From Opitutaceae bacterium (GTDB taxonomy: Bacteria; Verrucomicrobiota; Verrucomicrobiia; Opitutales; Opitutaceae): a stretch of DNA of 56,180 bases. The notes under the pieces are model-generated. The model ran no database searches. It was not told where the DNA came from and worked only from the letters and a program-made list of their open reading frames with translations. Below are positions 3,271-54,014 of this stretch, piece by piece. Each line of letters begins with the position of its first letter. The stretch's first letter is position 1. A program made the position numbers and the translations under genes. The stretch covers positions 1 through 56,180 of the forward strand of contig JAGNQV010000001.1 in assembly GCA_017988885.1 (NCBI GenBank). Direction: 5' to 3'.

Positions 3271-3342
3271 CGTCTCTGAGGTGCGGTAAGAATCACCAGA
3301 ATTCGCTTTCCGCATTCGCCGGAAACCACATCCTTCACGCTC

Positions 3343-7362: not shown

Positions 7363-7389
7363 GGGATTACTTCAAAAATAGGTCGCGCA

Positions 7390-30942: not shown

Positions 30943-31373
30943 TAGGCTGTGATTTTAGCATGCGCACCAGCGATGCCCCCAAATCTGGTCTTGTCTCGGT
31001 CTCCTGCGTAAGGGCCTTGCTTGACTTCGATCATTTCCAACTCCTCCAAAACCTCGAACCCGTGACCGCCGGTGGCTAGCAGTATGACATCACCGGCTTC
31101 TAACACTCGGCTTTCCAAATAAGCTTGGCTGTTGTCGTAAAAATCAACCCGTAGTTTACCGCGCTTGATGAACAACACCTCAAGTGTATATTCCACTGAC
31201 CTAGCCACGGGATTATGCACGTGCGGCGCAATGAGCTTGCCAGCTGGATGTTGCATGTAGGCCAGTTGCTGCGAGAACTCGTTAGGGGTGAAAAAATGTA
31301 TACCCGGCTGATTAAATTGATGGGGGACGATCAAAGCGAGTAATTCGCCTTGGTGACGGATTTCGGTAATCAT
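30942..31373 (-). CDS. cupin-fold protein (possible sugar-nucleotide isomerase/epimerase, WxcM/WbuC-like)
   Basis: 143 aa. HVHNP...E.L....G.L.V.F...GD....GGHGFE pattern of a single cupin barrel. Overlaps gmd by 4 nt. Confidence 0.45.
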
Positions 31374-32386
31374 GATTTATCCTCCAAAGTTTTCAGATGG
31401 GCTTCACGCTTAGCCACGGCACTATCGGCCTCAAGCATGAGTTTCACTAACTCCTTAAACTTCACTTTCGGCTGCCATTGGAGCTTTACCTTCGCTTTAG
31501 TCGCATCTCCGATCAGCAAGTCCACTTCTGTCGGTCGCAGGTAATCGTCGTCTATAACGAGATGTTTACGCCAATCCAATCCAGCAAGTCCAAAGGTCTC
31601 CTCAACGAACTCCCGGACTGAGTGAGCCTCCCCGGTGGCAACAACGAAATCCTCCGGAGCATCCAACTGAAGCATCCTCCACATCGCTTCGCAATACTCT
31701 GGCGCGTAACCCCAGTCTCGCTTGGCATCAAGATTACCTAGGACAAGTTTGTCCTGAAGCCCATGCAGGATGCGAGCGACCCCCAGCGTAATCTTACGCG
31801 TCACGAAGGACTCGCCGCGTCGAGGCGATTCATGATTAAATAGGATGCCGTTGCACGCATACATTCCGTAGGCTTCGCGGTAGTTTTTAACGATCCAGAA
31901 GCCATAGAGCTTTGCGACTCCATAGGGACTGCGCGGATAAAATGGAGTGGTCTCGACCTGTGGAATCGCCTGCACCTTGCCATATAGTTCGCTTGTCGAC
32001 GCTTGGTAGAAACGCGTTGCCAGCTTTTTCTGTCGGATCGCCTCCAAGAAGTTCAACGTGCCCAAGGCATCAACAGTTGCGGTGTAGTGCGGAACATCAA
32101 ACGACACCTTCACGTGGCTCTGCGCCGCTAGATTGTAGATCTCATCCGGCCGCGTCGATTCGACGATATTTGCCACCGAACTAGCATCGGTAATGTCACC
32201 GTAGTGAAGGAAAAAACGCTTTTCCTTGTTGGCGGCATTATTGAAATACAGGTGATCGATACGTCCCGTGTTGAATGTGCTGCTTCGCCGAACCATTCCA
32301 TGCACTTCGTAACCCTTCGCTAGTAGTATCTCGGCCAGATACGAGCCATCTTGCCCGGTTATTCCAGCGATAAGTGCACGTTTCAT
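31370..32386 (-). CDS. gmd: GDP-mannose 4,6-dehydratase (copy 1)
   Basis: [49 protein letters not shown] and [19 protein letters not shown]. Confidence 0.9.
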
Positions 32387-32438
32387 AATGGTATCTAGGG
32401 GAAGAATGCTAGGTTAGAAAACAACTGAATTGACGCGG

Positions 32439-33377
32439 TCATAATCCGCGCAACTGACCAGCTTTCTCTTCCTGAGCAAAGGCCGCGTAAGTTTGGGCTA
32501 CTCCTTGCGCCAAGGAAACCTGGGCACGCCACCCAAGCGCAGTAAGTTGAGAAATATCCATGAGCTTTCGCTGCGTGCCATCAGGCTTGCTCGTATCCCA
32601 ACGGATTTCACCCACGTAACCCGTGACCGCAGCGACGATCCCAGCCAGCTCCCTGATCGTAATGTCCGCGCCTGTGCCTACGTTGACCCAGTCTGGCGGG
32701 GACGGCAATTTCTGCAAGAAGGCGCAAGCATCAGCGAGATCGTTCACATGCATGAATTCGCGGCGGACCAGTCCAGTGCCCCATGCGATAACGGCCGGCA
32801 GCCGGCGGGTCTTGGCATCATGGAACCTCCGTATCAGGGCTGGCAACACATGCGAATTCTGCGGATGGTAATTATCTCCCTGCCCATATAGATTTGTCGG
32901 CATCGCCGAGTGATAGGTCACCCCATATTGCTTCCGATAATATTGACATAACTTCATCCCCGCGATCTTCGCAATGGCGTAAGCTTCGTTGGTCGGCTCA
33001 AGTGAGCCGGTCAACAGACAATTCTCGGACATCGGCTGCGGCGCATGCTTCGGATAGATGCACGAACTGCCTAAAAATAGCAGACGTTGCACACCAGCGC
33101 GATGCGCACCATGAATAGAATTCAATGCAATGGCGAGATTATCATGGAGAAACTCGGCCGGATAAGTCGCATTGGCATGGATGCCGCCCACCTTCGCCGC
33201 GGCCACGATCACGGCGTCGGGCTTCTCCGCAGTATAGAAGGCTTCGACCTCCTCCCCGTTAGTCAGATCCAGTTCTTGGCGCGTGCGAAGCACAAGCGTG
33301 ACCCCCGGCTCCGCAGCATATCGCCGCACCAGTGCGCGGCCTACCATTCCATTATGTCCCGCAATGAAGAGTTTCAT
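32439..33377 (-). CDS. fcl: GDP-L-fucose synthase (GDP-4-keto-6-deoxymannose 3,5-epimerase/4-reductase)
   Basis: [35 protein letters not shown] and [21 protein letters not shown]. Confidence 0.85.
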
Positions 33378-33416: not shown

Positions 33417-34439
33417 TCACACCTTCGGCAGCTGCGCGATCTGGGCCTCGCGTTTGGCCTGATCAAGATCGGCATCGATCATGATTTTCACAAGCTCCTT
33501 GAAACGCACCTTCGGTTCCCAACCCAGTTGCTTCTTAGCCTTAATGGGATTGCCGATGAGAAGCTCAACCTCCGCAGGACGCTCGTAACGCGCATCATAT
33601 TTCACGTATTTCCTCCAGTCTAGATCCAGCAGCCCAAAGCTTTCCTCGATGAACTCTTTAACCGTGTGCGTCTCGTTTGTAGCGACTACATAGTCGTCGG
33701 GCTGGTCCTGTTGAAGCATGACCCACATCATCTCAACGTATTCTTTGGCGTAGCCCCAGTCACGCTTGGCCTCAAGGTTGCCCATATAGAGGCCTTCTTG
33801 CAGCCCCAGTTTGATGCGAGTGGCGGCGCGTGTGATTTTGCGCGTAACAAAAGTCTCACCGCGGCGCGGGCTCTCGTGATTAAAGAGTATACCTGAAGAG
33901 GCGTGGAGATTATAGCTCTCGCGATAGTTCACCGTCAGCCAGTGCGCATACATCTTGGCGCAACCATACGGCGAGCGGGGCCAGAAAGGCGTGGTTTCGA
34001 CCTGCGGTACTTCCTGTACCTTCCCAAACATCTCGGAAGACGAGGCTTGGTAGTAGCGGCATTTCTTTACGAGCCCGGCCTCGCGAATTGCTTCCAAAAT
34101 GCGGACGGCGCCCAAACCTGTGACATCCCCCGTATACTCCGGAATATCGAATGACACGCGCACATGCGACTGCGCGGCGAGATTGTAGATTTCGTCAGGC
34201 TGAAGGCTGTAGAGCAGCTTCACCATTTGCACTGAATCGGCAAGATCACCGTAGTGCAGGAAGAGCTTCACGCCATTGACATGCGGATCACGGTATAGGT
34301 GATCGATGCGACCAGTGTTGAAAGTCGAGGCTCGACGAATGACCCCGTGAACTTCGTAACCCTTGGCGAGGAGAAACTCGGCAAGGTAGGAACCATCCTG
34401 ACCGGTTATTCCGGTGATCAGAGCTTTTTTTAAAATCAT
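33417..34439 (-). CDS. gmd: GDP-mannose 4,6-dehydratase (copy 2, divergent paralog)
   Basis: [42 protein letters not shown] and [19 protein letters not shown]. Roughly two-thirds identical to copy 1 by eye. Confidence 0.9.
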
Positions 34440-34576
34440 AGTGCCTTAAGCAAAAATGCCTGTGCTGCGACCAATACCATCACGGCTTCGCCCCGTCGCT
34501 TCTTATATTGGAGCAATTGAGGTGGATCTTAATTTTTTGCCGCATATGCAGTCACCGGCGCTGCACCAGTAACCTG

Positions 34577-36352
34577 TCAAATCTTGGTCAGCTTCAAAAA
34601 AGTTTTCGCCACCGGCATTAGCGCGATTGCTCGATCATGCCAGCGTTGAAGTTTTTGCAGTCGCTCAGTGATCAACTTTTGATCACTGCCAGTCAATACG
34701 CCTAAAGACTTCATCAAATTGCCCAATCGGTTTTTCCCCTGCTTCAGCTGGGTATCTAGCCGCTGCTCCAGAAATCGCTGAATAAGCCGGCGCATCTCAA
34801 GATCAGGCGAGAAAAGTTCAGTGCGGTCTTTTTCGGTCGAAACCTCCGTAATCGCACCAATCTCACGCAAGGCTCGCAACCCCTGGCTGATTGAACCCTT
34901 GGAAAAATCCAGTCGTGACTCAATATCTGAAAAACTGAGTGGCTCTGGCGAGGCGAAGACGATGCCATAAATCGCGGCGACTGACTTTGGCACCCCAAGC
35001 AACTCCGCCGCGTCGACAAAAAACGCGACCATCTGAGTCTCGAAAAGCACAATACCCGACGGACGGTCACCAGCGATGACCAACGAATCCGGAGGTATTT
35101 GAAGTGAGGCGCCAGATGGCATTCCTGAAGACCGAACAGGAAATTTCTTTAATTTCAATTGAAAATGAACCTGTTTTTTATTTTCAGGACCCAGCGCACC
35201 CCGCCGCACTTGGTCTGGCGTGAGTGAAAAATATTCGCGCGACGTCAACAGACTCGCCCATTGCGTGTAGCGCAGCCGCAGAAATCGCTCCGTCAAACCA
35301 CATTCATCAGCGGCCAACGCCAAATCTGAACCCGCCATGGCCAGTCGATACGCGAGGTAGGATCGACGCGGCATCGCGTTCGAACGCGGTCGCCTCGTTT
35401 CGGGGCTCACCCGCCCTTGCGCAATCAGTCGAATATAACGCGATCCCATGACCAGCTTCTCGACCCGACGAAACTTCTGCCAGTGATTGGGTGGGTGGAA
35501 TGGCAACGCACGTTGCTTAATCCACTTTAGCCAGGCACGCAGCACCGGCAGAATCCGGATTACCCGACGACCGGTTGGCGCAAGTTCACGGTCCAACGTT
35601 ATCTCCCCACGCCGTAGGTCGATCTGACTCCATGGCACCGGATGGGCTTGCAGTCGTTCTGTCTCGTAAGTGCGTAAACCACCGAACAGGGCGAGAACCC
35701 AATAACCAATTTGATCAGTATGCATCGTCTCCTGGAGGATCCACCGCACTTCCTCCGGGGTGTAGATCAGCATCGACTTGGTGGGCCGCACCGGTCGCTT
35801 GATGGTATTCACTAGTAGATTTTCTTGAATATACCCTACCCGAACCAGCCAGTTAAAGTACGCCATTACGGTCTCCCAGTGGGACAACAAGGTATGCGCC
35901 TTCGACCAACGTTTGAAATACGTCGTCATGTCGCTCCCTTGCAGCGTAGTGACCGGTCGGGAGCCAAATACTGTGACGAAGGTATCCAATCGCTGGCGAT
36001 AAACCTGCAGCGTCCTCGGCGAGCGATTTTGGCCGCGCTTAAACTCAAGGAAGGCAGCCGCACTCTCCCCCACGGTCAGCTCATGATGAGTGGCCTGCTC
36101 GGCCATTACCTCTGCAATCGAGCGGATCTCGTGTCTTTTCGCCAAGATCGTAATGGCCTTGTCCGCTGGAGTAGCTTCGCTGACCGTTGTCACCCCTGAC
36201 GGGACCAAGGGTTCCACCAGTGCAGTCTGGAGCAAATTCTCCAGTTCCGCATCAACAGGTTCTCGTCCGGTCATCGCGACCAGCGCTCGTTTCAGGAGAC
36301 TGCGGGCATGACTCCGCATCCACGGGGGTTCGGCTGGCGGAAGCTTCGACAT
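34577..36352 (-). CDS. tyrosine-recombinase-like protein fused to a C-terminal GbsR/MarR-type winged-helix domain (paralog 3)
   Basis: aa ~100-378 align by eye with the two upstream integrase-like paralogs (GYWVLALFGGLRTYETERL; AMPRRSYLAY; RLRY). aa ~441-591 (nt 34577-35032) carry LLGVPKSVAAIYGIVFASPEPLSFSDIESRLDFSKGSISQGLRALREIGAI, typical of GbsR-family wHTH proteins. Confidence 0.65.
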   Translation of the reverse strand: MSKLPPAEPPWMRSHARSLLKRALVAMTGREPVDAELENLLQTALVEPLVPSGVTTVSEATPADKAITILAKRHEIRSIAEVMAEQATHHELTVGESAAAFLEFKRGQNRSPRTLQVYRQRLDTFVTVFGSRPVTTLQGSDMTTYFKRWSKAHTLLSHWETVMAYFNWLVRVGYIQENLLVNTIKRPVRPTKSMLIYTPEEVRWILQETMHTDQIGYWVLALFGGLRTYETERLQAHPVPWSQIDLRRGEITLDRELAPTGRRVIRILPVLRAWLKWIKQRALPFHPPNHWQKFRRVEKLVMGSRYIRLIAQGRVSPETRRPRSNAMPRRSYLAYRLAMAGSDLALAADECGLTERFLRLRYTQWASLLTSREYFSLTPDQVRRGALGPENKKQVHFQLKLKKFPVRSSGMPSGASLQIPPDSLVIAGDRPSGIVLFETQMVAFFVDAAELLGVPKSVAAIYGIVFASPEPLSFSDIESRLDFSKGSISQGLRALREIGAITEVSTEKDRTELFSPDLEMRRLIQRFLEQRLDTQLKQGKNRLGNLMKSLGVLTGSDQKLITERLQKLQRWHDRAIALMPVAKTFLKLTKI

Positions 36353-36369
36353 AAATCTTAGAGCGAACC

Positions 36370-37467
36370 CTAGATACGATTGGGGATTAGGTAAAAATAC
36401 TCCCGCGCCTGCTGCTTGGTCACCGGCCGCCGATAGTATTTCCGAACCATGCTTTCCGAAGTGCCCGCCCGTTGGGCAATCTCCTGATAACTCGCTCCCG
36501 GCAACTTGAGCGCGTGGGAAATAAAGGCCCGCCGGGCCATGTTGAAGTAGCCCAAGCGATTGTATCGCTTAGGCACAATCGCCACCTTCACTCCTAAGCG
36601 TCTTGCCACGACTTGCCTTCGCAGGCCTCGAACGCCCTTCAGTAAATTCTGGGGCCGAAACGGCCGCTCACTTTGCCTCATCCATTGCAGCCATGCCGTC
36701 AGCACGGGATGCATCGCCGCCCGGCGAGCGCGCATCTTGCCGGCACATGCAGGTATGTCGATAATTCCATCCTCTACGCGAAACCATCGCCACGGCTCGG
36801 CCTCCCGCTGTAGCCGCCGAATTTCAACTATTCTCATCCCAGAAAATAGCGCCAACACCCAAAAGCCGATTTCGTCCGTGTCCATCGTCTGCCGTAGAAT
36901 AAACCGCGCTTCCTTAGCAGTAAAATAGCACCCTCCCCCTCCCGTAGGCACCGGCCTGGGCATGGCTCGTGACACCGGATTGCTCTGCCTATAGCCCATC
37001 GCCGCCGTCCAACCAAAAAAATGGAAGGCCAATCGCCAATAGCTGCATAGCGTATTCGGCTGCCGCCACTGAGCCAGGAACGAGGCCATCTCAGATGGCA
37101 AAATTAGATCGATTCGCCGGTCTCCGAAATCACGGGCGAGAATCCCCAGCAATTTACGGTAACCGCTCACTGTCTCGCGACTCGACCCGTCCCGTGCCTT
37201 GCTCCGCAGGAACGTGTCAATGCCTTGGGTCAAAATCAGCACCCGACGCCCTCCCTCATCAGCCGTATGGCGCTGGAGTGCCGTCATAACGTTGGGCAAG
37301 CCCAACGCCAAGGCAACCCCTCTAGCTTCCTCCACCTGCTCCCAATCGACGGCGCTCAACTCACTTGAACGGGGCAACGGGGCCGGCGTTGTCTGCAAAA
37401 CGTGCCTGATCGCGATCCGACACAGTCTAACCGCCAACGAATCACTAGGCGCCTTCCCTTGACTCAT
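36370..37467 (-). CDS. tyrosine-recombinase-like protein (paralog 2)
   Basis: GFWVLALFSGMRIVEIRRL (box I Arg), NMARRAFISHAL (box II Arg) and SESMVRKYYRR (candidate nucleophile Tyr). ATGA overlap with paralog 1. Confidence 0.7.
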   Translation of the reverse strand: MSQGKAPSDSLAVRLCRIAIRHVLQTTPAPLPRSSELSAVDWEQVEEARGVALALGLPNVMTALQRHTADEGGRRVLILTQGIDTFLRSKARDGSSRETVSGYRKLLGILARDFGDRRIDLILPSEMASFLAQWRQPNTLCSYWRLAFHFFGWTAAMGYRQSNPVSRAMPRPVPTGGGGCYFTAKEARFILRQTMDTDEIGFWVLALFSGMRIVEIRRLQREAEPWRWFRVEDGIIDIPACAGKMRARRAAMHPVLTAWLQWMRQSERPFRPQNLLKGVRGLRRQVVARRLGVKVAIVPKRYNRLGYFNMARRAFISHALKLPGASYQEIAQRAGTSESMVRKYYRRPVTKQQAREYFYLIPNRI

Positions 37468-38687
37468 CGCTCCTCCGGAAATAGCTCGAAATACCTCAAG
37501 GCATCACATTCAGAAACCTTCCGATGGTAGTGCTTCCTGATCACTTCCTCGCTGTTACCGGCCGAGAGGGAAACCTCCGCAAAACTCGCCTGTGGCTGGG
37601 CCAGTCGGTATGAAATGTATGATCGGCGAGCGATGTTTACGGCCCAGCGGCTCGATCCCGTCGTTTTGTGACCTCCGGACAACTCGCGCGGCATATGCGA
37701 AGTCAAAGCAGCATCCCGCACCTGCCTGCACCGATTATGGAAATTTCGGGGATAGAACAATAAGTCGCGGCGTTTGATCAATTCCAACCAAGCCCGCAGA
37801 ACTGGTAATACTGGCACTGTCCGCGGCCATGTTTTGGTGATCTGGCTACGTAAATCGATTACTCCTGCATCTAATTTTATCACCTGCCAAGGATCCGCCA
37901 GCGCTTCCAGTCTTTGAACCTCCGCGGTGCGCAAACCCGCAAACATAGCCAAAACCCAAAATCCGAGCGATCCATTCTCATTCGCTTTACGTAGCACAGC
38001 TCTGGCTTCCTCGACCGTCATGACCCTCCGCTCCGGCCATTGCGTCCGCGGCTTTCGCATCGCCCGCACCACCGGATTGTCCACGGCATAGTGCATTCGC
38101 ATGGCCCAGGTATAGAAAGTAGCTAGCGTCTGCCAGCGGTGCGCCCGGGTATATGGATTATTCCACCGCAAGATGAAATCCGCTATCTCCTGCGGGGTGA
38201 TCGAGGTCATCACTCGCCCAGGATATGCCGCCATGAAATCGTTGAAGTGCAGTCGGTAAACCTTGAGCGAAATCGGGCTAACTCCTTCACAACGCTTGGC
38301 GACCTGAAATTCCTCTATCCCCTGATCGAGCATCCGTTCGTGATCAAACAGGCGATTCTGCACAAACCAGATGACCGGCGTGGTCAGCGATTTAATGCCG
38401 TGTTCCCTCGCCAGGACCATTGCTCGCTCGGCATCTTCTTGTTGCGCGGCTGACAGCCAGGTCGGACCTCGTTTCTCATCCGCAATGAGCGAGGGCGTGG
38501 CGACCTTGGGGTCGATGCCGTCGGCCATTACCGCCGCCGAGAGACTGCTCAATTCTTCATCTGTCGGCCAACGATTTTGCGCATGAAAAAAGGCTTGGCG
38601 GAATCGCTCCTGAGGATCGAATTTTGCAGGGCTTGTCATACTGGCTGGCGTTCGGAGCAGAAAAATTAGCCAACTATAGAGGGTCAA
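37464..38687 (-). CDS. tyrosine-recombinase-like protein (paralog 1)
   Basis: GFWVLAMFAGLRTAEVQRL, NIARRSYISYRL and SEEVIRKHYHR. The track start at 38687 is TTG; ATG at 38639 (MTSPAKFDP) is the more likely start. Confidence 0.7.
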   Translation of the reverse strand: MTLYSWLIFLLRTPASMTSPAKFDPQERFRQAFFHAQNRWPTDEELSSLSAAVMADGIDPKVATPSLIADEKRGPTWLSAAQQEDAERAMVLAREHGIKSLTTPVIWFVQNRLFDHERMLDQGIEEFQVAKRCEGVSPISLKVYRLHFNDFMAAYPGRVMTSITPQEIADFILRWNNPYTRAHRWQTLATFYTWAMRMHYAVDNPVVRAMRKPRTQWPERRVMTVEEARAVLRKANENGSLGFWVLAMFAGLRTAEVQRLEALADPWQVIKLDAGVIDLRSQITKTWPRTVPVLPVLRAWLELIKRRDLLFYPRNFHNRCRQVRDAALTSHMPRELSGGHKTTGSSRWAVNIARRSYISYRLAQPQASFAEVSLSAGNSEEVIRKHYHRKVSECDALRYFELFPEER

Positions 38688-38705
38688 TAAAAATACACTC
38701 TATAG
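38674..38705. promoter_or_regulatory. perfect 8-bp inverted repeat CTATAGAG-N16-CTCTATAG in the divergent integrase/XRE intergenic region (candidate operator)
   Basis: Read directly. AT-rich 16-nt spacer GGTCAATAAAAATACA. Lies between the likely integrase ATG (38639) and the likely XRE GTG (38744). Confidence 0.5.
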
Positions 38706-38743
38706 ATGGTAGATGTTCACCCATCGCCCCGCTAGTCTGGGCC

Positions 38744-38971
38744 GTGCATAGCGCCACCAAGCTTCAGCGCCTCCTAGGCGATACCTTTCGGACCGGCCGC
38801 AAAGAGCAAGGTCTCAGCCAAGAATCACTTGCGGAAGCCGCAGGCTTGAGCCGTAATTACTATGGCAGCCTTGAGCGCGGGGAAAAAATGCCCTCTGCCT
38901 TGACCGTTATCCAGATTGCCGGGGCCTTGAAACTGAGCGGCGCTGAACTGCTTGCTCGGGCCAAAGTCTGA
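38744..38971 (+). CDS. XRE-family helix-turn-helix transcriptional regulator
   Basis: GLSQESLAEAAGLSRNYYGSLERGEKMPSALTVIQIAGAL is a canonical Cro/C1 HTH. The track ORF starts at 38624 (TTG) and would overlap the integrase; an in-frame GTG at 38744 gives a 75-aa protein. Confidence 0.75.
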   Translation: MHSATKLQRLLGDTFRTGRKEQGLSQESLAEAAGLSRNYYGSLERGEKMPSALTVIQIAGALKLSGAELLARAKV

Positions 38972-39556
38972 TTTCGATCGTCCACCCCACCAGCGCAGGT
39001 AACTGATTTTGGCCATCTACGAATTTTAGCCGGCGCCTCGGCGACACAGCGCTGATCAACCAGAATGCCGTGGCCCACACCGCCTGAGGCGGGGTCTGCC
39101 CTGACGATGGCGATTCAGCGTGCGCTTCTCCGGCGACTGCTCAGCGAAACTACCCGGCCGGCCTTCATTGGCCAACCCACCGCGTCGAGATACTCGTCGG
39201 CCAGCCCGGTGGCGTCACGCCCCCTGAGATTATGTTGGATTAGGCCAATCATATCAGGGGCCTTCGAGCCCATGATGCGAACGAGGATGCGGCCAGCGGC
39301 CAGAAACACGCGATAGTCTCTAGCCGGGAGGGGTATCTTTAATATTAAGAAACAGGAGGAGGTGTGCATGGATCATGACCATAAGATTCACCGCCTAGCC
39401 GTTAGCATTCAGGCTCGCGCCGGGCGGAAGTTTGGGGTGGATACGTGGATTCGGAGTGAACCCACGGCAGGTTTTACGGTCTCCATGATAACATACCCCA
39501 ACGCGGTTCGTATCGGCACGAAGCGCACCACATTCGGCGATTCGCGCTCACCCATC

Positions 39557-40573
39557 CTATGGGCGGATATCACTCGGCAGACGGTCACTGACTCGACGAA
39601 ACCATCGCCCCATCATCGTGTCGTCCGAGAACCCACACTCTTGCGCAATTTCAAGGGTCCGTATGCTCGTGGTTTCCAGTAGCTCCTGCGCCTTCGCAAC
39701 CCTGCGCCGCATCACATAATTATGCGGCGTTAGACTGAAACTCCGTTTGAATAACCGGCCAAAGTAGCTCGTGCTTTGATAGCCGGCTGCTTTTGCCAAA
39801 GTCCCCAATCGCAGCGAATCGGCAAGATGCTCGTCAATATGGCGACTCACCCGCCTTAGCGCCCAATCCGGCAACCCGCCGGCCAGATCTGCCCGGGCGC
39901 CCGAAGCATATATCGCCTGGAGGATGTGGGCACCCAAAACCGTGCCCATCGCCTCGATGTAGAGCTGACTGGTCTTTTCCCGCCCACCGCAAATCCGCCG
40001 GAAGGCTTTCGATAGCTGTCCAATGACTTCGTCCCGGCTCGTCAATTGCGACAGCGGCATCATTTCAAACTCCAGGATATCTTGTTCAATCGTCTCCCGA
40101 ACAAAGGCCCGCTCCGCGTAGAGTGTGATCATATCCGCTTCCTTCGGACAAATGAGCGCATGAGGTCTGCCGGCCGGAATCACCCACACTGTTGGCCCCG
40201 ATACGTGAGCCTCAGCCCACTCTCCATAGGCATCCTTAACCCGAATCGTGCACTCGACGTCATCCAGCAAGCCGACCACCTGATCCTGCACGTGCCAGTG
40301 TTCACCCCATTCGTTCGGCGGATGGCGGTCACAGTATACGCTGACACCGCGTCCAGGATTGAGGCTGCGGCGGTAGCCATTGGCTGCCGGAGGCAAGAGA
40401 GAGGGATTGGGTTCGAGTAAAGCGAACCCTCCTTCGGGGTGAGCGTCGGTCATTAAGTTAGGAAATGCCCGCGCAGCCCGGCACGGGGACATTCCGCATC
40501 GTAACAACAAACCATTCGCTTGAATCGGCAGAATGCGCGTATGTTTCGGCAAAACGCGCTGCGCGTTACTCAA
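39557..40573 (-). CDS. AraC-family transcriptional regulator (N-terminal cupin, C-terminal double HTH)
   Basis: C-terminus LGTLAKAAGYQSTSYFGRLFKRSFSLTPHNYV...IAQECGFSDDTMMGRWFRR. Start uncertain: TTG 40573, ATG 40492 or ATG 40453. Confidence 0.8.
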   Translation of the reverse strand: MSNAQRVLPKHTRILPIQANGLLLRCGMSPCRAARAFPNLMTDAHPEGGFALLEPNPSLLPPAANGYRRSLNPGRGVSVYCDRHPPNEWGEHWHVQDQVVGLLDDVECTIRVKDAYGEWAEAHVSGPTVWVIPAGRPHALICPKEADMITLYAERAFVRETIEQDILEFEMMPLSQLTSRDEVIGQLSKAFRRICGGREKTSQLYIEAMGTVLGAHILQAIYASGARADLAGGLPDWALRRVSRHIDEHLADSLRLGTLAKAAGYQSTSYFGRLFKRSFSLTPHNYVMRRRVAKAQELLETTSIRTLEIAQECGFSDDTMMGRWFRRVSDRLPSDIRP

Positions 40574-41000
40574 CGCGATTGCACTGACCCAGTGGCAATG
40601 TTTCCCCTAAAGGATGAATCGAAGCCAAGGGCGATGGGTTACCCGCAATCAAGCCAAAGGCTGAAAGTCTCAAATTGTCGGTGAAAACCTATCACGCCCA
40701 CCACTCACTCATCTATTCGTTAACGTTAGCAAAGATGCCCAGACCTAAAATACGACTCATCCAACCGGGCCCACCTCATAGGTATCACCGGCCACCGCCA
40801 ACACCGACTTGAAGGATTCTGCGGGTCGCGTTCCGGCAGGCCGTGGTAGAGGGCATCTTCAAACTGCCGGTTTTCAAGTAAGACCCTCAACGAGGAAGGC
40901 AAAGCCTTCCTCGTCACACCTGCCAGCAGGCGGGGTGCGGCACCGCGTAGGTCTGGCCCTCCAGTCGGTCAAGAATGAAAGCTTGCCAGCGGCCTATCCC

Positions 41001-41030
41001 TGTAAGAAATAGTGCCCTGTTTTTCTTACA
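41001..41030. promoter_or_regulatory. 9-bp inverted repeat TGTAAGAAA-N12-TTTCTTACA immediately upstream of the AbiEi ATG (candidate autoregulatory operator)
   Basis: Read directly. It ends 8 nt before the ATG at 41039. Confidence 0.5.
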
Positions 41031-41038
41031 AGAATGCT

Positions 41039-41659
41039 ATGGCCAATCTGTCACAAAGTATCGAGCAATCAGTGACTAGCCGGATTTACGGTAGAGGTAG
41101 GGGTTGCGTGTTCACCCCGAATGACTTTCTGGACCTCGGAAGTCGAGGCTCCATCGACCTTTCCCTGCATCGTCTGACCGATGCCGGCACCATCCGCCGT
41201 ATCGCCCGCGGCCTCTATCATTACCCGGAAAGCCACGCCCTGCTGGGCGAAGTGGGCCCTTCCATTGAGGCGATGGCCAAGGCCTTGGCGGCCAGTGAAC
41301 AGGTCAAATTGCAGCCCTCCGGGGCCTACGCGGCCAATCTCTTGGGGCTTTCCGAACAGGTGCCGGCCAAGGTCGTGTTCCTCACCAGCGGTCGGGCCCG
41401 CAAGGTGAAGCTCGGCAAGCTCATCATCGAGTTGCGGCCCACGACACCGCGCAAAGTGGCGGCGGCGGGCCGCACGAGCGGGCTCGTGTTGGCCGCGTTG
41501 CGGTATTTGGGGAAAAATCACATTGCCTCGGATCGAATCGCCCATTTGCGGAAAACGCTGTCCACCGAGGACCGGCGACAGTTGCTCACAGATTTGCCAA
41601 GTGCTCCCGCTTGGTTGCATCCCCATCTGCGGGCCATCGCCGCGAAGGCATCGCCATGA
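41039..41659 (+). CDS. AbiEi-type (DUF6088-like) type IV toxin-antitoxin antitoxin
   Basis: RIYGRGRGCVFTPNDFLDLGSRGSIDLSLHRLTDAGTIRRIARGLYHYP N-terminal wHTH pattern. ATGA overlap with the downstream AbiEii-like frame. The track ORF starts at GTG 41012; ATG 41039 is preferred. Confidence 0.7.
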   Translation: MANLSQSIEQSVTSRIYGRGRGCVFTPNDFLDLGSRGSIDLSLHRLTDAGTIRRIARGLYHYPESHALLGEVGPSIEAMAKALAASEQVKLQPSGAYAANLLGLSEQVPAKVVFLTSGRARKVKLGKLIIELRPTTPRKVAAAGRTSGLVLAALRYLGKNHIASDRIAHLRKTLSTEDRRQLLTDLPSAPAWLHPHLRAIAAKASP

Positions 41660-42680
41660 GCACGTTTGCAACCCTGACCGCGAAAGAGCGCGAACTGTTC
41701 TTCCGCCAGTATCAGGGAAAACGCGGCGTCGATCCCGTCATTGCGGAAAAGGATTTCTGGGTTTGCTGGTTGCTCGGCCGGATCTTCGAACAACCCCAAC
41801 TCACGGACGCGTGCGTGTTCAAAGGCGGCACCTCCCTTTCAAAAGTGTTCGGGGCCATCGAACGATTCTCCGAAGACCTCGACCTTGCCATCATTCCCGC
41901 CTCGCTCGGATGGAAAGAGTCCGACCTCGACCAAGCACCCTCACGCACCAAGCGGGAGGAGCGCATGGCCGAGTTGGAGGCGGCCTGTGCCGCTGCCGTG
42001 GAGGCGACGTGGCAGCCACAGCTGGAGGAATCCGTCCATGCGGTGCTTGGCGCGCCAACCGATCGCGCCCACTGATTGACGTATCGCTTCGACGAGGCCG
42101 CCCGCTCTCCGGTCATCTTCTTCGCGTATCCCGGCGCCCTGCCTCGCGGCGTCGCCTACATTGCCCGCGAGGTGAAGATCGAATTCGGATCCCTGACGGA
42201 CCAGCGTCCCATCGGACGCCATCCGATTCAGGCCTTCGTCGCCGAACTCGCCCCGGGAGCCTTCACCGACTTTCAAGCGGAGGTCGTCGCCTTGGAACTG
42301 GAGCGCACGTTTTGAGAGAAGGCCACGATCCTGCACGCCGAATTTCATCGCCCGGCCGACCGCCAGATGAGGGACCGGCATGCCCGGCACTATGCGGACT
42401 TCGTGGCGTTGTGGCGGCACGCACCGGCTCAGGCTGCGCGCAGTCGCCTCGATTTGTTGGAGCGGGTGCGCCTCCACAAATCCCGTTTCTTTCCTCCAGC
42501 TGGGCTAACTACGCTACTGCGGTCCCCGGTTCGCTACGCCTAGTGCCGCCCGCAGCACGGATCGACGCTCTGCGCGAAGATTACGAGGCGATGCAGCAGA
42601 TGTTCCTCGGCGAACGCATGCCGTTCGAAACGGTGCTCGCTGTTCTGCAGGAAGCCGAGGCCACGTTGAATCACTCCTGA
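41656..42680 (+). pseudogene. AbiEii/AbiGii nucleotidyltransferase toxin, disrupted (two in-frame TGA codons and one frameshift)
   Basis: KDFWVCWLLGRIF...VFKGGTSLSKVFGAIERFSEDLDL, then in-frame TGA at 42073-42075. IFFAYPG...VKIEFGS...LERTF, then in-frame TGA at 42313-42315. EKATILH...RHYADFVALW...HKSRFF, then the frame changes near 42484-42500 to SSWANYATAVPGSLRLVPP...LNHS, ending at 42680. Confidence 0.75.
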
Positions 42681-42729
42681 GATTGCAGCGGTGCCGAGGA
42701 GCGCTGACAGCTGACTGGTTGTTACTTGC

Positions 42730-43656
42730 TTAGTCCGATTGGGCGATCATGAGGCCCGATCCACTGGCGTCCCGCACCACCATGCCACAACCAGAGCCGG
42801 AGGCATAGAGCCTCCGGACCACAGCACCCTGCAACTGGCGCTCCACCATCTTGCGCAGAGGACGTGCACCCAGTTGGGGGTGAAAACCCTCGCGCACTAG
42901 GAACTCCATCGCCTCGCGACTTATCTCCAAATCATAACCAACGCCGCACAGGCGGGATGTTTCCCGCCGCACTTCCAATTCACAGATTCGCCGCTGCGCA
43001 TCGGAAGTAAGTTTCTGGAAAACCAACACTTCATCCAACCGTCCGAATAACTCCGGGCGCAGACATTCCCGCAGCCGACGCAATACCGCCTGTTCAACTC
43101 GGGTGGCGCTAGAATGCGCCATCCGCATCGCCTCGGCGCCGCCAATGTTTGTCGCGAAACCGACGTAGTAATTGCCAAAATGAAACGTCTGTCCGGTCGC
43201 GACAGTCACCCGTCCATCCCACAGAATTTGCAAAAACACATCCAGAAGCGAAACCCAGGCTTTATCCATTTCGTCGAAGAACAAGGCCCCATCGGGATGG
43301 GCGATGAGTGCGCGGCCTAAAAGCCCGGGATCGTCGCGGCCTTGGCCGAGCAGCCGGTGCACCGCCAACTCGTCCTGATACTCCGACATATCGAAGGCCA
43401 CAAGTTTACCCGGTCCCAATGCGTATTCCACCGCACACTTAAAGGTTTCGGACTTACCGGAACCGGTGGGACCGGCAAACAGTAACGAGCCTCGCGGGCG
43501 CGCAGGATCAACGATGCCACATTCGCCACTACCAAAGACAGCCGCCACACGAGGCAGCAGGTGATCCTGCCCAATAATGCGGGAACGCAAGTGCGCCTCG
43601 AGACCGCGCAGCTGCTCGATACGTGCGGGATCAATCACGTTGCTTTTGCCTTCCAA
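42730..43656 (-). CDS. stand-alone AAA+ ATPase of the ClpA/ClpB second-nucleotide-binding-domain (AAA_2 + D2-small) type
   Basis: IIGQDHL...PRGSLLFAGPTGSGKSE (Walker A), AFDMSEY, ALFFDEMDKA (Walker B), LQILWDGRVT, and GARPLRKMVERQL (sensor-2 / D2-small). No N-domain, NBD1 or middle domain. Confidence 0.75.
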   Translation of the reverse strand: MEGKSNVIDPARIEQLRGLEAHLRSRIIGQDHLLPRVAAVFGSGECGIVDPARPRGSLLFAGPTGSGKSETFKCAVEYALGPGKLVAFDMSEYQDELAVHRLLGQGRDDPGLLGRALIAHPDGALFFDEMDKAWVSLLDVFLQILWDGRVTVATGQTFHFGNYYVGFATNIGGAEAMRMAHSSATRVEQAVLRRLRECLRPELFGRLDEVLVFQKLTSDAQRRICELEVRRETSRLCGVGYDLEISREAMEFLVREGFHPQLGARPLRKMVERQLQGAVVRRLYASGSGCGMVVRDASGSGLMIAQSD

Positions 43657-44102
43657 GTGCCGGCGACCTGCCAGCCGCGTGCCTTCGGCGGAAATTTATC
43701 CAAGAACGCCTGCACCTCGGACCCGATGGCTCCGCCGTTGCGGAGCGCCCGTAAAATCGCCCGCACCACAAACGCGCGCGTCGCAATCACACCGGCGTCC
43801 GCCAAGGCCACCACAACCGCGTCCAGCTTCCTGACCTGATCGCGTGGCAGATCGAGCGTCGGGTGACCAGTTATATTCCCGGACTCGCGGGGACCGTCCT
43901 TCTTTTCATAGGCCGCGTGAAGGAGAAGGGCATGCGCCTGCATTTCCACCGGCGAGGTCAGGTAAATCAGAGCGCGTAAAAAAGTGCCGGCGCGCACCTC
44001 GACCCCTGCCCGCTTCAATTCTGCGTTCCGCGCCTTCAAGGCAGTCATGTCCTCAGCGTAAAAGGAGAAACTCACCTTGATCGGTTTTGCACCTGAATTC
44101 AT
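43635..44102 (-). CDS. hypothetical DNA-binding protein with two ribbon-helix-helix-like units
   Basis: Two segments with an RHH beta-strand plus helix pattern (KVSFSFYAEDMTALKAR... and TLDLPRDQVRKLDAVVVALAD...). Divergent from the T4SS operon. Overlaps the AAA+ gene by 22 nt. Confidence 0.4.
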   Translation of the reverse strand: MNSGAKPIKVSFSFYAEDMTALKARNAELKRAGVEVRAGTFLRALIYLTSPVEMQAHALLLHAAYEKKDGPRESGNITGHPTLDLPRDQVRKLDAVVVALADAGVIATRAFVVRAILRALRNGGAIGSEVQAFLDKFPPKARGWQVAGTWKAKAT

Positions 44103-44117
44103 GGCGTTACCTCTATT

Positions 44118-44159
44118 CCCATACGTTTAGTTTTGACAAGGGTATATTTTTCGTATGGG
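44118..44159. promoter_or_regulatory. 8-bp inverted repeat CCCATACG-N26-CGTATGGG bracketing a consensus -35 TTGACA (44133-44138); candidate promoter/operator of the T4SS operon
   Basis: Read directly in the 66-nt divergent intergenic region. The -10 is weak (TATGGG at 44154, 15-nt spacing). Confidence 0.4.
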
Positions 44160-44168
44160 TTTTGAGAA

Positions 44169-44477
44169 ATGATGATTTTCCCCCTGCTTCCTGCCCTCCG
44201 GGTCAAGGCCGCGATGCTGACCAAGGGCACGACCGTCCTGGCCCAGCTTCAGCAGCTGCGCGAAGGCTTCGGCAGTGCCCTCGTGCTGATCTTCATGGTC
44301 GGGTTTTTCTGGGGGATCATCAAAATCTGGTCCGGGGCCAACGCCATCAGCAAGGGCGATAGCGAAGGCAAGGGCGGGATCCTCGCCGGGATCATCATTG
44401 CGGCAGCTGCATCCATCATGGGAGCGCTCTTCGCCATCTTCGGCATGCAGGATGCGGTCGTAACCCCGCGGTTTTGA
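44169..44477 (+). CDS. TrbC/VirB2-like pilin candidate
   Basis: About 100 aa with two hydrophobic helices (ALVLIFMVGFFWGIIKIW and GILAGIIIAAAASIMGALFAIFG) separated by a short charged loop. First gene of the T4SS operon. Start could be an internal Met. Confidence 0.55.
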   Translation: MMIFPLLPALRVKAAMLTKGTTVLAQLQQLREGFGSALVLIFMVGFFWGIIKIWSGANAISKGDSEGKGGILAGIIIAAAASIMGALFAIFGMQDAVVTPRF

Positions 44478-44485
44478 GGAAAACC

Positions 44486-47401
44486 ATGAACGAACTGCGC
44501 TTCACCGACACCAACGCGGCCGATGACTCATCCGGCCGGGTTTTTGGCCTCGACGGTAATCTCTATCTGCCGCTGGTGATCGGGGCCGTGACGGCGATCG
44601 GGCTGTTTGCCGGTCTGGCGTTTCTCGGCGCAGGATATGGGACCGCAGCCTGGGGCGGAATTGCTCCCTTGGCCGGACTTTCCGTATGGGTTTTGGGATT
44701 CAGGCACGGCAAGCCACGCGGGTATGACCGCGACCGCTTAGATATGCTCATGGGCGGGAGTAACGGGTCGCCCGCTTCCGTTTCCGAGACGCACGGCAAG
44801 ACCCATGACGGACCACCCGATGGCCGATTCGTCCATGGCTTCATTCTTTTCGGGTCGCCCGAACGAGGCGGAGTCGCGGCCAAGGGCTTCAGGTTGGAAC
44901 CGCCGGACCTGCGTGGCGCGAGCATCACCCGGCTAAACGCCTTTCAGGATCAGGTGCGCGCACTGCTCGCCTTGGTCGGGCCGGGGCGGCGGGTGCAGTT
45001 CCAATGGTCTTGTGATTCGGACTACCGGGATGAATTGCTCCGCTACCATGAGCACACCCAGACGGCGTCCAATCCTGAGGTCCGGCGGGTGCGGAACGAA
45101 CGGTTCACCCGCTACTGGCAGCGCATGGCGGCACGGCAGCTGCGGCGCGAACGACTGACCCTGTTTCTCTCCATCGAAATCACCACCTACGCCGGCAACC
45201 TCCGCCTCCGCGACGGGCTCGAAGGCCACTACGAAATCCTGTTCCGCGAACTGGCGGCCCAATTCGAGGAATTCGCGACCACGCTGCGGAGCGTGTTCGG
45301 GTCCGAGACGGCCGTCACCCCGCTCGACGCGGCCGGGCATTGTGCCTGTCTGAGGCGATTCCTCAATCCGGGGCTCGCGGCGCAGACTCAGCATGATCGC
45401 GCTGACCAGTTCGACCCGAGCATGAGTGTGCAGGAGAACTGCTGGCACAGCGAAAGCCTCGGCCAAGCTGACGGTGGGTTTCATCTGGACGGCCACTATC
45501 ACGCGGTCCTCGCGCTGTCCCGCTGGCCGCAGCGGACTCGGCCCGGAATCGTCACGCATCTGACCGGCCTTCCGTTCTTGGACTACAGCCTCTCAGTCAA
45601 CGTCACCCCCGTCGCCACGCGGACCGAAATCGGCCGCGAGGAACGCGCGGCCGAACGCCTGCGCGGTGAATACTCCGAAAAGCCCCGCGCTTCCCTGCTC
45701 GTGGCACTCAGAAAAAAGGAGCGCAAAGTTGAGCAGTTGTCCGGCGGGTTCGCCCGGCCGTTTCATGTCACGTATCTGCTGCGGATGTGGGCGCCAACCA
45801 AGGAAGCGTTGCGCGAAAAAGTCGCAGCCGTGCAGGCCGCAATTCATGCGATGGACGGAGCGCAATACCTCGAATGTTCGTTGCCGACGACGGCACAGAA
45901 GTTGTTCTTCGCCTCATGGCCGGGCTGGACGCATTCCTCCTACCGGCACCGCGAGCTTTACGCCGAGGATGCGTATCTGGCGGACATGCTCCCGTTCTCG
46001 GCGACCTTCACCGGGGCGCTGACCGAGGCCGAGGCGCTTTACGATGGCAGCCACGGCAACCTGGTCGGCGTTTCAACGCAGGCCGGCGGTTCGCCGCAAC
46101 ATGCGGTGCTCTTTGGCATGACCGGCGCCGGCAAGTCCGCCTTCGTCGAGGATCTGCTTTGGCAGACTGCGGCGGACTTCGACTACACGTTGATTGCGGA
46201 GGAGGGATTTTCTTACAAACGGTTCACGGAGAGCATGGGTGAAACTCCGATCATCGTTCATCCCGATGCGGCCCTCACCCTTAACTATCTCGATACCCAG
46301 CGGCTGCCACTTTCGCAGCTCCATCTAGCAACGGCGGTCGCGTTGCTCGCCCGGATGGCGGGGCAACCGGATCGAGCCGAACAACTGGCCCTGCGACAGG
46401 CCCAGCTCACCCAATATCTCCACCAACTCTACCGTGATACCTATGTGGATTGGTCGCGGCGTCGGCCCGAAGCGGCCGAGCAGGCCCGGCGGCTCGCGTG
46501 TGCCACACACCAGTGGCGGAGCAAACTTCCGGCGGGAGCCACGCCGCTGGATATATATTGCGACCTGCGCGACCGGTTGGCTCGCAACGAGGATGAAGCA
46601 TCCGGTTTTGTCGCCGGATTATCCGAGGAAACCATCACGCGGTTCGCCCAGGCACCGGAGACGGAACGGCTCGTGGCCCATACCGCATGCGCCTTTTTCG
46701 CCCCGGAGGATTATCCGACGCACAGTGCATTGGTCGAACTGCTGGCCTACGGCCGGTTTCCAGAGCACAGCAAGGACGAGATCGACCGGCTCGCAACCTT
46801 GCTCCGCGCCTGGAGCGTCGAGGGCCAATACGGTCGGCTGTTCGACGGCGTGACCAACATTGCCCTGAACCGGCGGATTGCTCACTTCGAGTTGGGCTCA
46901 ATTCCCGAGCAGGCCGTCGAACTCAAGGCCGCCGTCGGGCTCCTCATCAGCGGGCTGGGCCGGCAGCACATCCTCGCCCTCCCCCGTGCTAGCAGAAAAC
47001 GCATCCTCTTCGAAGAACTGTCACGCTTCCTCGATACCCCGGGCGGCGAACAGATCGTGGCGGAAGGTTACGCCCAGTTGCGGAAACACAACTGCTGGTG
47101 CGCCTCGATCATCCAGCAGTATTCACGGTTCAAGACCTCGCGTATCCGCAGTGCGGTGATCGGCAACGCGAAGCAGTTCTTCTTCATGCGGCAGGCCGAC
47201 CGGGCTGATCTGGCCGACCTCGCCACGGATCTGCCGCTGCCAGAAACCGCGCTCGATGCCATCCAGCGGTATCCGTTGCCCGAGCAATTGCCCGACAATG
47301 GCCGGTATTCCTCGCTTTGTTATTTTGCGCCTACGACGCAACCGCCGCAATGCGGCACGATTCGCCACATCCAGCAAAAAAAGGAACGCCATGCGGCCTA
47401 G
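44486..47401 (+). CDS. virB4: VirB3-VirB4 (TrbD-TrbE) fusion, conjugal transfer ATPase
   Basis: GAGGA 5 nt before ATG 44486. N-terminal ~90 aa with two TM helices (VirB3-like). Walker A LFGMTGAGKS and Walker-B-like RILFEELSRFLD. About 970 aa. Confidence 0.8.
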   Translation: MNELRFTDTNAADDSSGRVFGLDGNLYLPLVIGAVTAIGLFAGLAFLGAGYGTAAWGGIAPLAGLSVWVLGFRHGKPRGYDRDRLDMLMGGSNGSPASVSETHGKTHDGPPDGRFVHGFILFGSPERGGVAAKGFRLEPPDLRGASITRLNAFQDQVRALLALVGPGRRVQFQWSCDSDYRDELLRYHEHTQTASNPEVRRVRNERFTRYWQRMAARQLRRERLTLFLSIEITTYAGNLRLRDGLEGHYEILFRELAAQFEEFATTLRSVFGSETAVTPLDAAGHCACLRRFLNPGLAAQTQHDRADQFDPSMSVQENCWHSESLGQADGGFHLDGHYHAVLALSRWPQRTRPGIVTHLTGLPFLDYSLSVNVTPVATRTEIGREERAAERLRGEYSEKPRASLLVALRKKERKVEQLSGGFARPFHVTYLLRMWAPTKEALREKVAAVQAAIHAMDGAQYLECSLPTTAQKLFFASWPGWTHSSYRHRELYAEDAYLADMLPFSATFTGALTEAEALYDGSHGNLVGVSTQAGGSPQHAVLFGMTGAGKSAFVEDLLWQTAADFDYTLIAEEGFSYKRFTESMGETPIIVHPDAALTLNYLDTQRLPLSQLHLATAVALLARMAGQPDRAEQLALRQAQLTQYLHQLYRDTYVDWSRRRPEAAEQARRLACATHQWRSKLPAGATPLDIYCDLRDRLARNEDEASGFVAGLSEETITRFAQAPETERLVAHTACAFFAPEDYPTHSALVELLAYGRFPEHSKDEIDRLATLLRAWSVEGQYGRLFDGVTNIALNRRIAHFELGSIPEQAVELKAAVGLLISGLGRQHILALPRASRKRILFEELSRFLDTPGGEQIVAEGYAQLRKHNCWCASIIQQYSRFKTSRIRSAVIGNAKQFFFMRQADRADLADLATDLPLPETALDAIQRYPLPEQLPDNGRYSSLCYFAPTTQPPQCGTIRHIQQKKERHAA

Positions 47402-49700: not shown

Positions 49701-49711
49701 TCAGCCCAGCT

Positions 49712-52807: not shown

Positions 52808-52808
52808 C

Positions 52809-54011: not shown

Positions 54012-54014
54012 GCC

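Follow-up and report, generated by a model that had tools for sequence, protein, structure and literature searches.

Three recombinase-fold genes at the head of a glycan locus

The stretch of DNA analysed here (the window) comprises 56,180 nucleotides of contig JAGNQV010000001.1 from an Opitutaceae bacterium (assembly GCA_017988885.1), and the system in question is a set of three tandem genes on its minus strand, g1, g2 and g3, which encode proteins with a tyrosine-recombinase fold. This trio lies directly upstream of a glycan-biosynthesis cluster, with which it is co-directional, and is faced by a divergent gene for a regulator of the XRE type (Table 1). Two of the three proteins carry the full set of catalytic residues that is usual in their clade, and the third is degenerate and continues into a winged helix of the GbsR type. 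The explanation that we favour, tentatively and at somewhat less than an even chance, is that the trio is a hetero-multimeric tyrosine recombinase that is specific to Opitutaceae, is tied to the glycan locus and resembles the recombinases of two kinds of integrative element, the GInts and the SEs (strand-biased circularizing integrative elements), rather than being a set of dead enzymes.

The arrangement is as an earlier note on this DNA had described it. According to the coordinates of the open reading frames (ORFs), the three minus-strand genes are contiguous, with g1 and g2 overlapping by 4 nt (ATGA) and g2 and g3 separated by 17 nt. For g1, the ATG at 38639 is a more likely start than position 38687; the database copy of the protein has 391 aa. 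The claim that the three genes are paralogs is likewise borne out. The proteins are 29-31% identical in pairwise comparisons (BLASTP, E values from 2e-45 to 1e-52), they have the blocks GxWVLAxFxGxRxxExxRL and (E/R)YFxLxP in common, and in a neighbor-joining (NJ) tree of 173 sequences, 61 fall into a single clade that is made up of the trio members and the top-scoring representatives and is divided into position-specific subclades; as this distance tree is simple and has no support values, the monophyly and the subclades are provisional. Since all three fall into one clade, they would have arisen by duplication within a single integrase lineage.

On the basis of structural models, the two-domain tyrosine-recombinase fold of the trio proteins can be taken as certain. 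AlphaFold models of g1 and g3 have a mean pLDDT of 75 and 82, respectively, with high values over most of residues 90-390 in g3, and both display, by Foldseek comparison, a single SAM-like core-binding domain followed by a catalytic domain. Tn1549 Int, XerA and Cre are among the structures matched; for g3, the matches include Brujita Int alongside XerA and Tn1549 Int, and the g1 model aligns with residues 75-356 of lambda Int at a target-normalised TM score of 0.62-0.64. At the level of sequence profiles, the PHROG integrase family phrog_1 matches all three proteins with E values between 4e-13 (g2) and 7e-20 (g1). A scan with curated models reported no PF00589 for any of the three and gave only weak SAM-like matches and partial XerD/XerA matches, the latter spanning the N-terminal domain through box I, and the PADLOC defence-system models yielded only generic helix-turn-helix (HTH) matches and weak ones to winged helices of the Csa3/CARF type.

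The assignment of catalytic residues, which had been made by eye in the earlier note, proved to be correct. The box I Arg, the box II Arg and the Tyr nucleophile are retained in g1, g2 and g3, and both conserved His are replaced in all three proteins, with Asn, Asn and Ala (in the order g1, g2, g3) at the His-I position and Asn, Thr and Leu at the His-II position. Also as previously read, g1 and g2 have the beta-hairpin Lys, which g3 lacks. Written from box I through the hairpin, His-I, box II and His-II to the nucleophile, the signature of g1 is R-K-N-R-N-Y, that of g2 is R-K-N-R-T-Y, complete apart from the Thr at His-II, and that of g3 is R-P-A-R-L-Y. None of the three has the canonical set of R-K-H-R-H/W plus Tyr, whereas g1 and g2 have the set that characterises their own clade.

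This clade is large. An exhaustive search with a trio profile overturned the view, derived from a word-indexed search, of an extremely rare family: at E<=1e-3 it returned 24,596 cluster representatives, of which 1178 remain at E<=1e-30. Among the best 171 hits of this search, to which all of the following counts refer, box I carries R in 164 and the hairpin K in 140 sequences; the His-I position is N in 129 and D in 17 and never H; box II is R in all of the 161 that could be aligned; the His-II position is N in 118, H in 15 and T in 10; and the nucleophile is Y in 149. By this comparison, R-K-N/D-R-N/H-Y is the normal signature of the integrase clade to which the trio belongs, and the loss of both His appears as a trait of the clade and not as decay. 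The significance that the earlier note had implied for the His replacements thus does not stand. PF00589 is passed at its gathering score by six of ten clade members that were sampled. The two members whose contexts were fetched are single integrases in mobile-element settings, one of them prophage-like, with HTH_3, Bro-N and ParB, and the other next to an HTH_17 gene and a primase/DUF3987 gene in a P4-like or satellite-like arrangement. The nearest annotated phage proteins are integrases of Akkermansia phages, which fall into the same clade, and the integrase of phage Chambord, with the signature R-K-D-R-H-Y, shows that the first catalytic His is replaced by Asn or Asp there, too. Unlike the trio, such integrases of verrucomicrobial phages and satellites are encoded by one gene each, at a place usual for an integrase; their identity is only ~22-27%, and they have no link to glycan loci. 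Because the substitutions are the norm across the clade, including single integrases of mobile elements, they are no argument against activity. The IntBPP-1 and IntDes subgroups are further recorded cases of natural deviation at the first catalytic His (PMC8138268).

The trio recurs in about eight Opitutaceae loci, and all six hits in a scan of a genome collection were metagenome-assembled genomes of Opitutaceae. Wherever a locus offers room for them, three copies stand in tandem (L001/L014, L007/L008, L009, L012, L013, L015 and L016), and intact trios keep their order, their spacing and their position-specific orthologues across deep divergence. In every complete trio, a single degenerate member accompanies two that are catalytically complete, and two subgroups can be told apart by its place. 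In subgroup A (the window, L001, L015 and L016), positions 1 and 2 are complete and position 3 is degenerate, with the signatures RPARLY, RSNRQY, RAARTY and RRGRLY; the hairpin Lys is absent from all of these. In subgroup B (L007, L009 and L011-13), positions 1 and 3 are complete, and the degenerate position 2 has lost the Tyr (RGGRVH, RCNRLR, RGGRDH). Position 1 has the full set R-K-N-R-N/S-Y in 12 of 12 loci despite an identity of only ~40%, which argues for selection on catalysis.

The module in L006 (5707-7931) is a decayed one, made up of an XRE-like gene, a position-1 gene cut short at 238 aa and a 377-aa ORF. The N-terminal half of this ORF resembles sequence read out of frame, and its C-terminal half is a GbsR-like domain that is intact and follows the motif described below. 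The trio operon of L007 includes a stand-alone response-regulator receiver domain of 107 aa (7216-7539), which separates the XRE gene from the position-1 gene.

The winged-helix part of g3 and its upstream motif

The C-terminal ~180 residues of g3 match the NCBIfam model CudC of the GbsR family (2e-8) and, in a profile comparison, the PDB entry 1ku9 (MJ223; 1.8e-15), to which Foldseek also relates the g3 model (2.4e-5). Of the earlier note's description, the fusion to a winged helix of the GbsR type is confirmed by these matches, while the proposed internal start at Met441 is not: it is Met411 (ATG at 35122) that aligns with the starts of stand-alone orthologues and that, by this alignment, is the start of the winged-helix gene. 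The module has the same winged-helix core as the GbsR/MJ223 regulators. It differs from them in its context, which is the head of polysaccharide clusters and not osmoprotectant genes, and in that it constitutes an Opitutaceae-wide subfamily with an upstream motif of its own; in the window and in L001, the module is translationally joined to a recombinase-fold protein.

Judging from its relatives, the GbsR-like part is an ordinary and abundant leader gene of Opitutaceae glycan loci. A profile of the domain found at least 825 clusters, nearly all of them stand-alone proteins of ~182 aa that are 55-84% identical to the window domain; the stand-alone protein P0201 is 84% identical to it over all 181 residues. 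The proteins P0003-P0005 match the GbsR-like domain only and not the recombinase part, and relatives carry the JGI label 'GbsR (MarR family)', with Opitutae/Lacunisphaera as their source. In every context that was readable (L002, L003/4, L103, L105 and L106, the last three being long chromosomal contigs), the stand-alone gene opens a polysaccharide cluster with no trio upstream. The order in L103 of GbsR, gmd (340 aa) and fcl (312 aa) is that of the window, and L103 aligns to window positions 35170-32556 with 76.6% DNA identity, the homology beginning exactly at a conserved 16-nt motif. Rather than an invention of g3, the GbsR-like part is a widespread stand-alone leader gene that is read into through this upstream motif.

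The motif, TTCAWWTTSAATTGAA, occurs once in the window, as compared to 0.03 copies expected by chance. It is present in one copy each in nine loci, in every case shortly before the start of the GbsR-like gene (for instance L003 4986-5001, L006 7324-7339, L015 13371-13386, L016 13599-13614, L103 9954-9969 and L105 1904-1919), and is absent from 97 other loci. It probably is the operator or promoter of the GbsR leader gene. Between the window and L103, a stretch of 27 nt is identical at the motif. Normally the motif is non-coding; in the window it is coding and lies within the g3 linker (residues 395-410), a region that is predicted to be disordered (pLDDT <50 for residues 397-418 in the model).

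How the fusion came about can be read from the other loci. In L007, L015 and L016, position 3 is followed by the GbsR-like gene as an ORF of its own. In the window and in L001, position 3 has no stop codon, and ~16 formerly intergenic codons, including the motif, are read through to the ancestral start codon. On this sequence evidence, the fusion amounts to read-through from position 3 into a leader gene that already existed and is widespread; it has been kept in two lineages whose fused proteins (g3 and P0002 of L001) are 43% identical, and the free GbsR-like protein probably still is made from Met411. A sequencing artefact, which the earlier note had considered, is ruled out by the occurrence of the fusion in P0002/L001 and by the linker, which keeps the reading frame across the conserved motif.

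In L016 (15878-16137), L015 (16055-16420) and L007 (12216-12788), the GbsR gene recurs as a second copy or a C-terminal fragment 0.3-2.3 kb downstream on the same strand. The copies in L015 and L016 are C-terminal fragments, and there is neither a second copy nor a fragment in L103, L105, L106 or the window. These downstream copies may be traces that an earlier insertion or replacement left at the head of the locus. For L015 and L016, a simple reading of the fragments as attL and attR was dismissed, since there is no 5′ fragment upstream. The GbsR-like proteins of L002 (1375-2451) and L003 (5024-6142) have long N-terminal extensions of low complexity, rich in Pro, Arg, Ser and Thr, as well as large insertions within the wing; in P0004, these include repeated units that read 'ERPTSNI(E/Q)HPTSNG'.

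The XRE gene, the glycan insert and its conjugative carrier

The span given in Table 1 for the XRE gene is the most likely one, with a GTG start deduced from a 75-aa orthologue. Orthologues in L001, L007 and L009 are 80%, 50% and 37% identical, and in the window, L001, L007, L009 and L006 the gene has a position-1 gene as its neighbour. The intergenic region between XRE and g1 has 104 nt and contains two palindromic sites, CTATAGAG and CTCTATAG, spaced by 16 nt around a TTGAC element. The same architecture of paired palindromes is found in L001, and in L007 two 14-bp palindromes flank TTGAC. From this sequence layout we infer that the paired palindromes serve as operators.

Positions 1-3270 and 39115-56180 of the window are, according to Pfam, the backbone of a conjugative element. 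Related backbones are found in at least 80 metagenome relatives, in which the type IV coupling protein (T4CP) is 67-83% identical, and 80 of these have the order ParA, an ORF, T4CP, a slot, a small ORF (minus strand), AraC (minus strand), the ClpB-like gene (minus strand) and VirB4. In many relatives, the distance between T4CP and AraC is only ~0.6 kb, and window positions 38994/39071-39590 are collinear with this spacer. Hence, the region from ~3271 to ~39100, which contains the Wzy_C gene, the glycan cluster, the GbsR-like module and trio, and the XRE gene, is one insert of 35.7 kb, whose boundaries are each placed to within ~70-140 nt. The small ORF at its right flank has tblastn matches in 51 related elements (48-76% identity), always between the slot and AraC, and has no family assignment. 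The junction of T4CP and small ORF is a general hot spot for cargo, with contents that range from 0 to >35 kb.

At most ~140 nt separate the XRE stop codon from the insert boundary, such that the XRE/trio module lies at the very edge of the insert; the homology between the window and L001 likewise stops at the XRE stop. The earlier note had placed the trio at the junction of glycan cargo and the rest of the element, and the comparison of slots agrees with this. With a GC content of 0.55-0.58, the trio matches the glycan cluster (0.49-0.55) rather than the backbone (0.60-0.65). None of the 80 related backbones carries the trio or the GbsR-like gene.

Some further observations concern the glycan cluster itself. 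It contains two paralogous genes of the GDP-mannose-dehydratase type (31370-32386 and 33417-34439), and a direct repeat of 143 nt with 74% identity lies over the 5′ ends of the dehydratase genes (32247-32389 and 34294-34436). A GC-rich block at 13000-18000 (0.60-0.67) stands out from the remainder of the cluster and suggests a mosaic origin.

Table 1. Coordinates of the genes and sequence features discussed in the text (positions in the window)
Feature	Position	Strand	Remarks
g1	37464-38687 (longest ORF)	-	position-1 tyrosine recombinase; likelier span 37464-38639
g2	36370-37467	-	position-2 tyrosine recombinase
g3, whole ORF	34577-36352	-	591-aa fusion of recombinase-fold module and winged helix
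g3, recombinase-fold module	35171-36352	-	residues 1 to ~394; degenerate member of the trio
g3, winged-helix module	34577-35122	-	from Met411; GbsR/MJ223-type, MarR-like winged helix with long C-terminal helices
Conserved 16-nt motif TTCAWWTTSAATTGAA	35154-35169	-	core palindrome TTTCAATTGAAA; within the g3 linker
Paired palindromic operator-like sites	38674-38705		CTATAGAG-N16-CTCTATAG
XRE/Cro-C1-type HTH regulator	38744-38971	+	75 aa; divergent from g1; Pfam HTH_3 3.5e-15
Glycan-biosynthesis cluster	4879-34439	-	co-directional with the trio
gmd	33417-34439	-	first gene of the glycan cluster
fcl	32439-33377	-	second gene of the glycan cluster
Polysacc_synt_2 gene	4879-6744	-	last gene of the glycan cluster; Pfam
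Wzy_C gene	3343-4863	+	O-antigen ligase/polymerase-like; far end of the insert; Pfam Wzy_C 2.2e-21
Cargo insert	3271-39100		~35.7 kb, in the T4CP/small-ORF slot
ParA	624-1331		conjugative backbone
Type IV coupling protein (TraG/TrwB-like)	1798-3270	+	left flank; Pfam TrwB_AAD_bind, TraG-D_C, T4SS-DNA_transf
Small conserved backbone ORF	39115-39369	-	84 aa; right flank of the insert
AraC	39557-40573	-	Pfam HTH_18
ClpB-like ATPase	42730-43656		conjugative backbone
VirB4/TraG-type ATPase	44474-47401		conjugative backbone

Relation to multi-recombinase systems and possible functions

Modules that use several recombinases (GInt, SE, RIT, Tn554) are few and poorly understood, and stem mainly from Proteobacteria and Firmicutes. 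In the following, likeness to GInt, SE and RIT elements is judged from their published descriptions, from layout, catalytic residues and the tree. The GInts (the Tn6571 family) carry an operon ginA-ginB-ginC-ginD (Bardaji et al. 2017, PMC5385486), in which GinA and GinB have the RHRHY residues and GinD is element-specific and required for recombination; their ends are marked by imperfect direct repeats of 10-17 nt and by an AT-rich end, and their diverse cargo can include large biosynthetic clusters (PMC5385486). GInts are on record in Opitutus terrae (PMC5385486). The window, L007, L015 and L016 resemble this arrangement in that three recombinase-fold genes and a small DNA-binding protein are located at the 5′ edge, with cargo directly downstream of the trio operon on the same strand. 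As in GInts, there is one degenerate member beside two catalytic ones, and the order in subgroup A (catalytic, catalytic, degenerate, small) is that of ginA-ginB-ginC-ginD. However, Asn or Thr takes the place of both His in g1 and g2, in contrast to RHRHY, no direct repeats or AT-rich end were found flanking the trio insert, whose boundaries are known to ~100 nt, and a divergent XRE gene is part of the trio module in four of ~7 loci.

SEs have the order intA-tfp-intB-srap, with a degenerate tfp; they are known from Gammaproteobacteria, show an RHRY motif and include one large recombinase (PMC10214605). Like them, the trio module is a four-gene core that includes a recombinase-fold protein without catalytic residues. 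The SE order of catalytic, degenerate, catalytic and small DNA binder is found only in subgroup B, whereas the order in the window is complete, complete, degenerate and winged helix, and unlike in SEs the trio members are all ~360-420 aa long and close paralogues.

A RIT (recombinase-in-trio) element would be a compact transposon that consists of RitA, RitB and RitC between terminal inverted repeats. As far as their description by Ricker et al. (2013) is relayed in PMC8138268, RIT elements comprise three distinct subfamilies and are bounded by inverted repeats, RitA having two core-binding domains and RitC an extra C-terminal helix. The trio looks like this in that it consists of three adjacent, co-oriented and closely spaced or overlapping tyrosine-recombinase genes, a layout that is kept in L001, L007, L009, L012, L015 and L016. 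Against this identity, its members are one another's closest relatives and together with their orthologues form one clade in the NJ tree instead of three subfamilies, the models show one core-binding domain and not two, no terminal inverted repeats were found, and the catalytic signature is non-canonical. A RIT identity is thus largely refuted and very improbable, and the earlier note's reading of a RIT-like layout that is nevertheless something different stands; all six genome hits are from Opitutaceae. By analogy of layout and subunit logic, the trio seems closest to the GInts, yet it fails several of their defining features. Features of its own are the three close paralogues, the XRE switch, the attachment to the head of a glycan locus and the fusion to a regulator of that locus.

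For the earlier note, two options were left, namely a lineage-specific multi-subunit recombinase and a set of recombinase-derived regulators. We favour the former because two complete paralogues are retained, because the trio descends from integrases of mobile elements, because of the parallel to GInts and SEs, and because of its position at the edge of the insert and its cargo-like GC content. In such a system, g1 and g2 would perform the strand exchanges as a hetero-tetramer, and g3 would be an architectural subunit, whose fused GbsR domain would anchor the complex on the operator-like motif that marks where glycan loci begin. The reaction would move or swap the glycan cluster as a unit, either by integration and excision or by replacement of a cassette, and the XRE protein would repress the trio module. 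A more far-reaching version, which we regard as rather unlikely, is a device for the swapping of glycan loci, in which the trio, with GbsR and motif as targeting or architectural element, would integrate, excise or exchange whole surface-polysaccharide clusters at the heads of resident loci, while conjugative elements would ferry these clusters between Opitutaceae.

Several points weigh against the trio being a recombinase. We infer activity of an active site with two Asn from context only. A search for flanking inverted or direct repeats, as the earlier note had suggested, found none at the ends of the insert or around the trio: there were no att-like direct repeats between the junction zones 3240-3360 and 38950-39120 (12/1, 14/2 and 17/3 for length/mismatches), no inverted repeats at the insert junctions and no terminal repeats at the ends of the XRE-trio unit, nor was an AT-rich terminus identified. 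As the boundaries are known only to ~100 nt, a short or degenerate junction repeat could have been missed. No trio relative was found in IMG/VR, and a search of a plasmid collection with g1 gave no match. In related conjugative elements, the slot holds varied cargo that is free of integrases (a hybrid kinase, methyltransferases, HsdM, AbiEii, an MFS transporter, Fic). Entry driven by the trio therefore is not required, which weakens it as a firm conclusion. The cargo is a glycan cluster in three of the three loci that could be checked (the window, L007 and L016, where GbsR and a glycan cluster follow the trio), in contrast to the diverse cargo of GInts. Finally, the fourth protein, unlike the element-specific GinD, mostly stands alone and heads glycan loci without a trio.

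Beyond these searches, a comparison of the sequence past the XRE stop across loci found no conserved terminus, there were no tRNA genes as target sites in the window or in eight loci, and Rfam found no known RNA families in the window.

The other option, proteins that were domesticated into non-catalytic DNA binders and that control transcription with the GbsR domain on the head of the glycan operon (by activation, anti-termination or silencing), is unlikely in our estimate but a live rival, and the main one. Such a regulator would receive its input from the XRE protein and, in L007, from the receiver domain, whose presence in the operon speaks for it. It would also accommodate that the module always lies directly 5′ of the GbsR motif and the glycan cluster, on the same strand, that the GbsR-like protein is the native leader of glycan loci, that one paralogue has become fused to it and the fusion was kept, that each trio has a degenerate paralogue, and that no recombination sites turned up. 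What pure DNA binding does not predict is the retention of the clade's catalytic residues in two of three paralogues in all loci at ~40% identity; moreover, most glycan loci do without a trio, and the nearest relatives are integrases of mobile elements. Alternatively, the XRE-trio could be a relic or neighbour without functional link: the integration module, or the remains of one, from another mobile element that inserted next to the glycan locus, passively carried since then and with a fusion that is a tolerated read-through. The decayed module in L006, with its truncated position 1, scrambled middle and intact GbsR part, would suit this, as would the genes of mobile-element type upstream of the trio in L007 (toxin-antitoxin, M78 peptidase) and L015 (an rve transposase) and the GbsR fragments downstream in L015 and L016. 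However, intact trios with conserved order and orthologues have persisted across deep divergence, genomic contexts that are independent of one another show the same junction with the GbsR motif, and beyond the XRE gene the window shows nothing more of such an element, all of which makes a mere relic improbable.

Tyrosine recombinases that lie beside capsule loci in Bacteroides act in phase variation, and the position of the trio directly upstream of a surface-glycan operon, in the same orientation, invites the idea that it inverts a promoter or a DNA segment and thereby switches the operon on or off. Yet searches for inverted repeats in 33500-40600 and in the whole window yielded only short imperfect pairs inside coding sequence, with none around the XRE/g1 promoter, the g3/gmd spacer or the motif, which is why an invertible promoter or shufflon was discarded. 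The palindromes in the promoter are 16 nt apart and suit operators, not an invertible segment, and three subunits would be unusual for an invertase. We therefore hold phase variation to be decidedly improbable.

If the recombinase that we favour is active, it would be an independent, sixth group of multi-recombinase systems, and one in Verrucomicrobiota, in which triplication of a single integrase lineage converged on a design of two active subunits plus one dead subunit plus a DNA binder. How such complexes might find their sites is hinted at by the dead subunit, which in nature is fused to a regulator specific to the locus. That integrases with Asn in place of both His make up a large clade in ordinary mobile-element contexts matters for annotation and for inferring activity from residues, and the GbsR-like gene with its 16-nt motif is an apparent general marker for the 5′ end of Opitutaceae glycan loci. 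A conjugative element with a complete 31-kb glycan cluster bears on surface variation of freshwater Opitutaceae under phage pressure, and if the trio indeed swaps whole glycan loci, serotype switching in these bacteria would proceed via site-specific and not homologous recombination.

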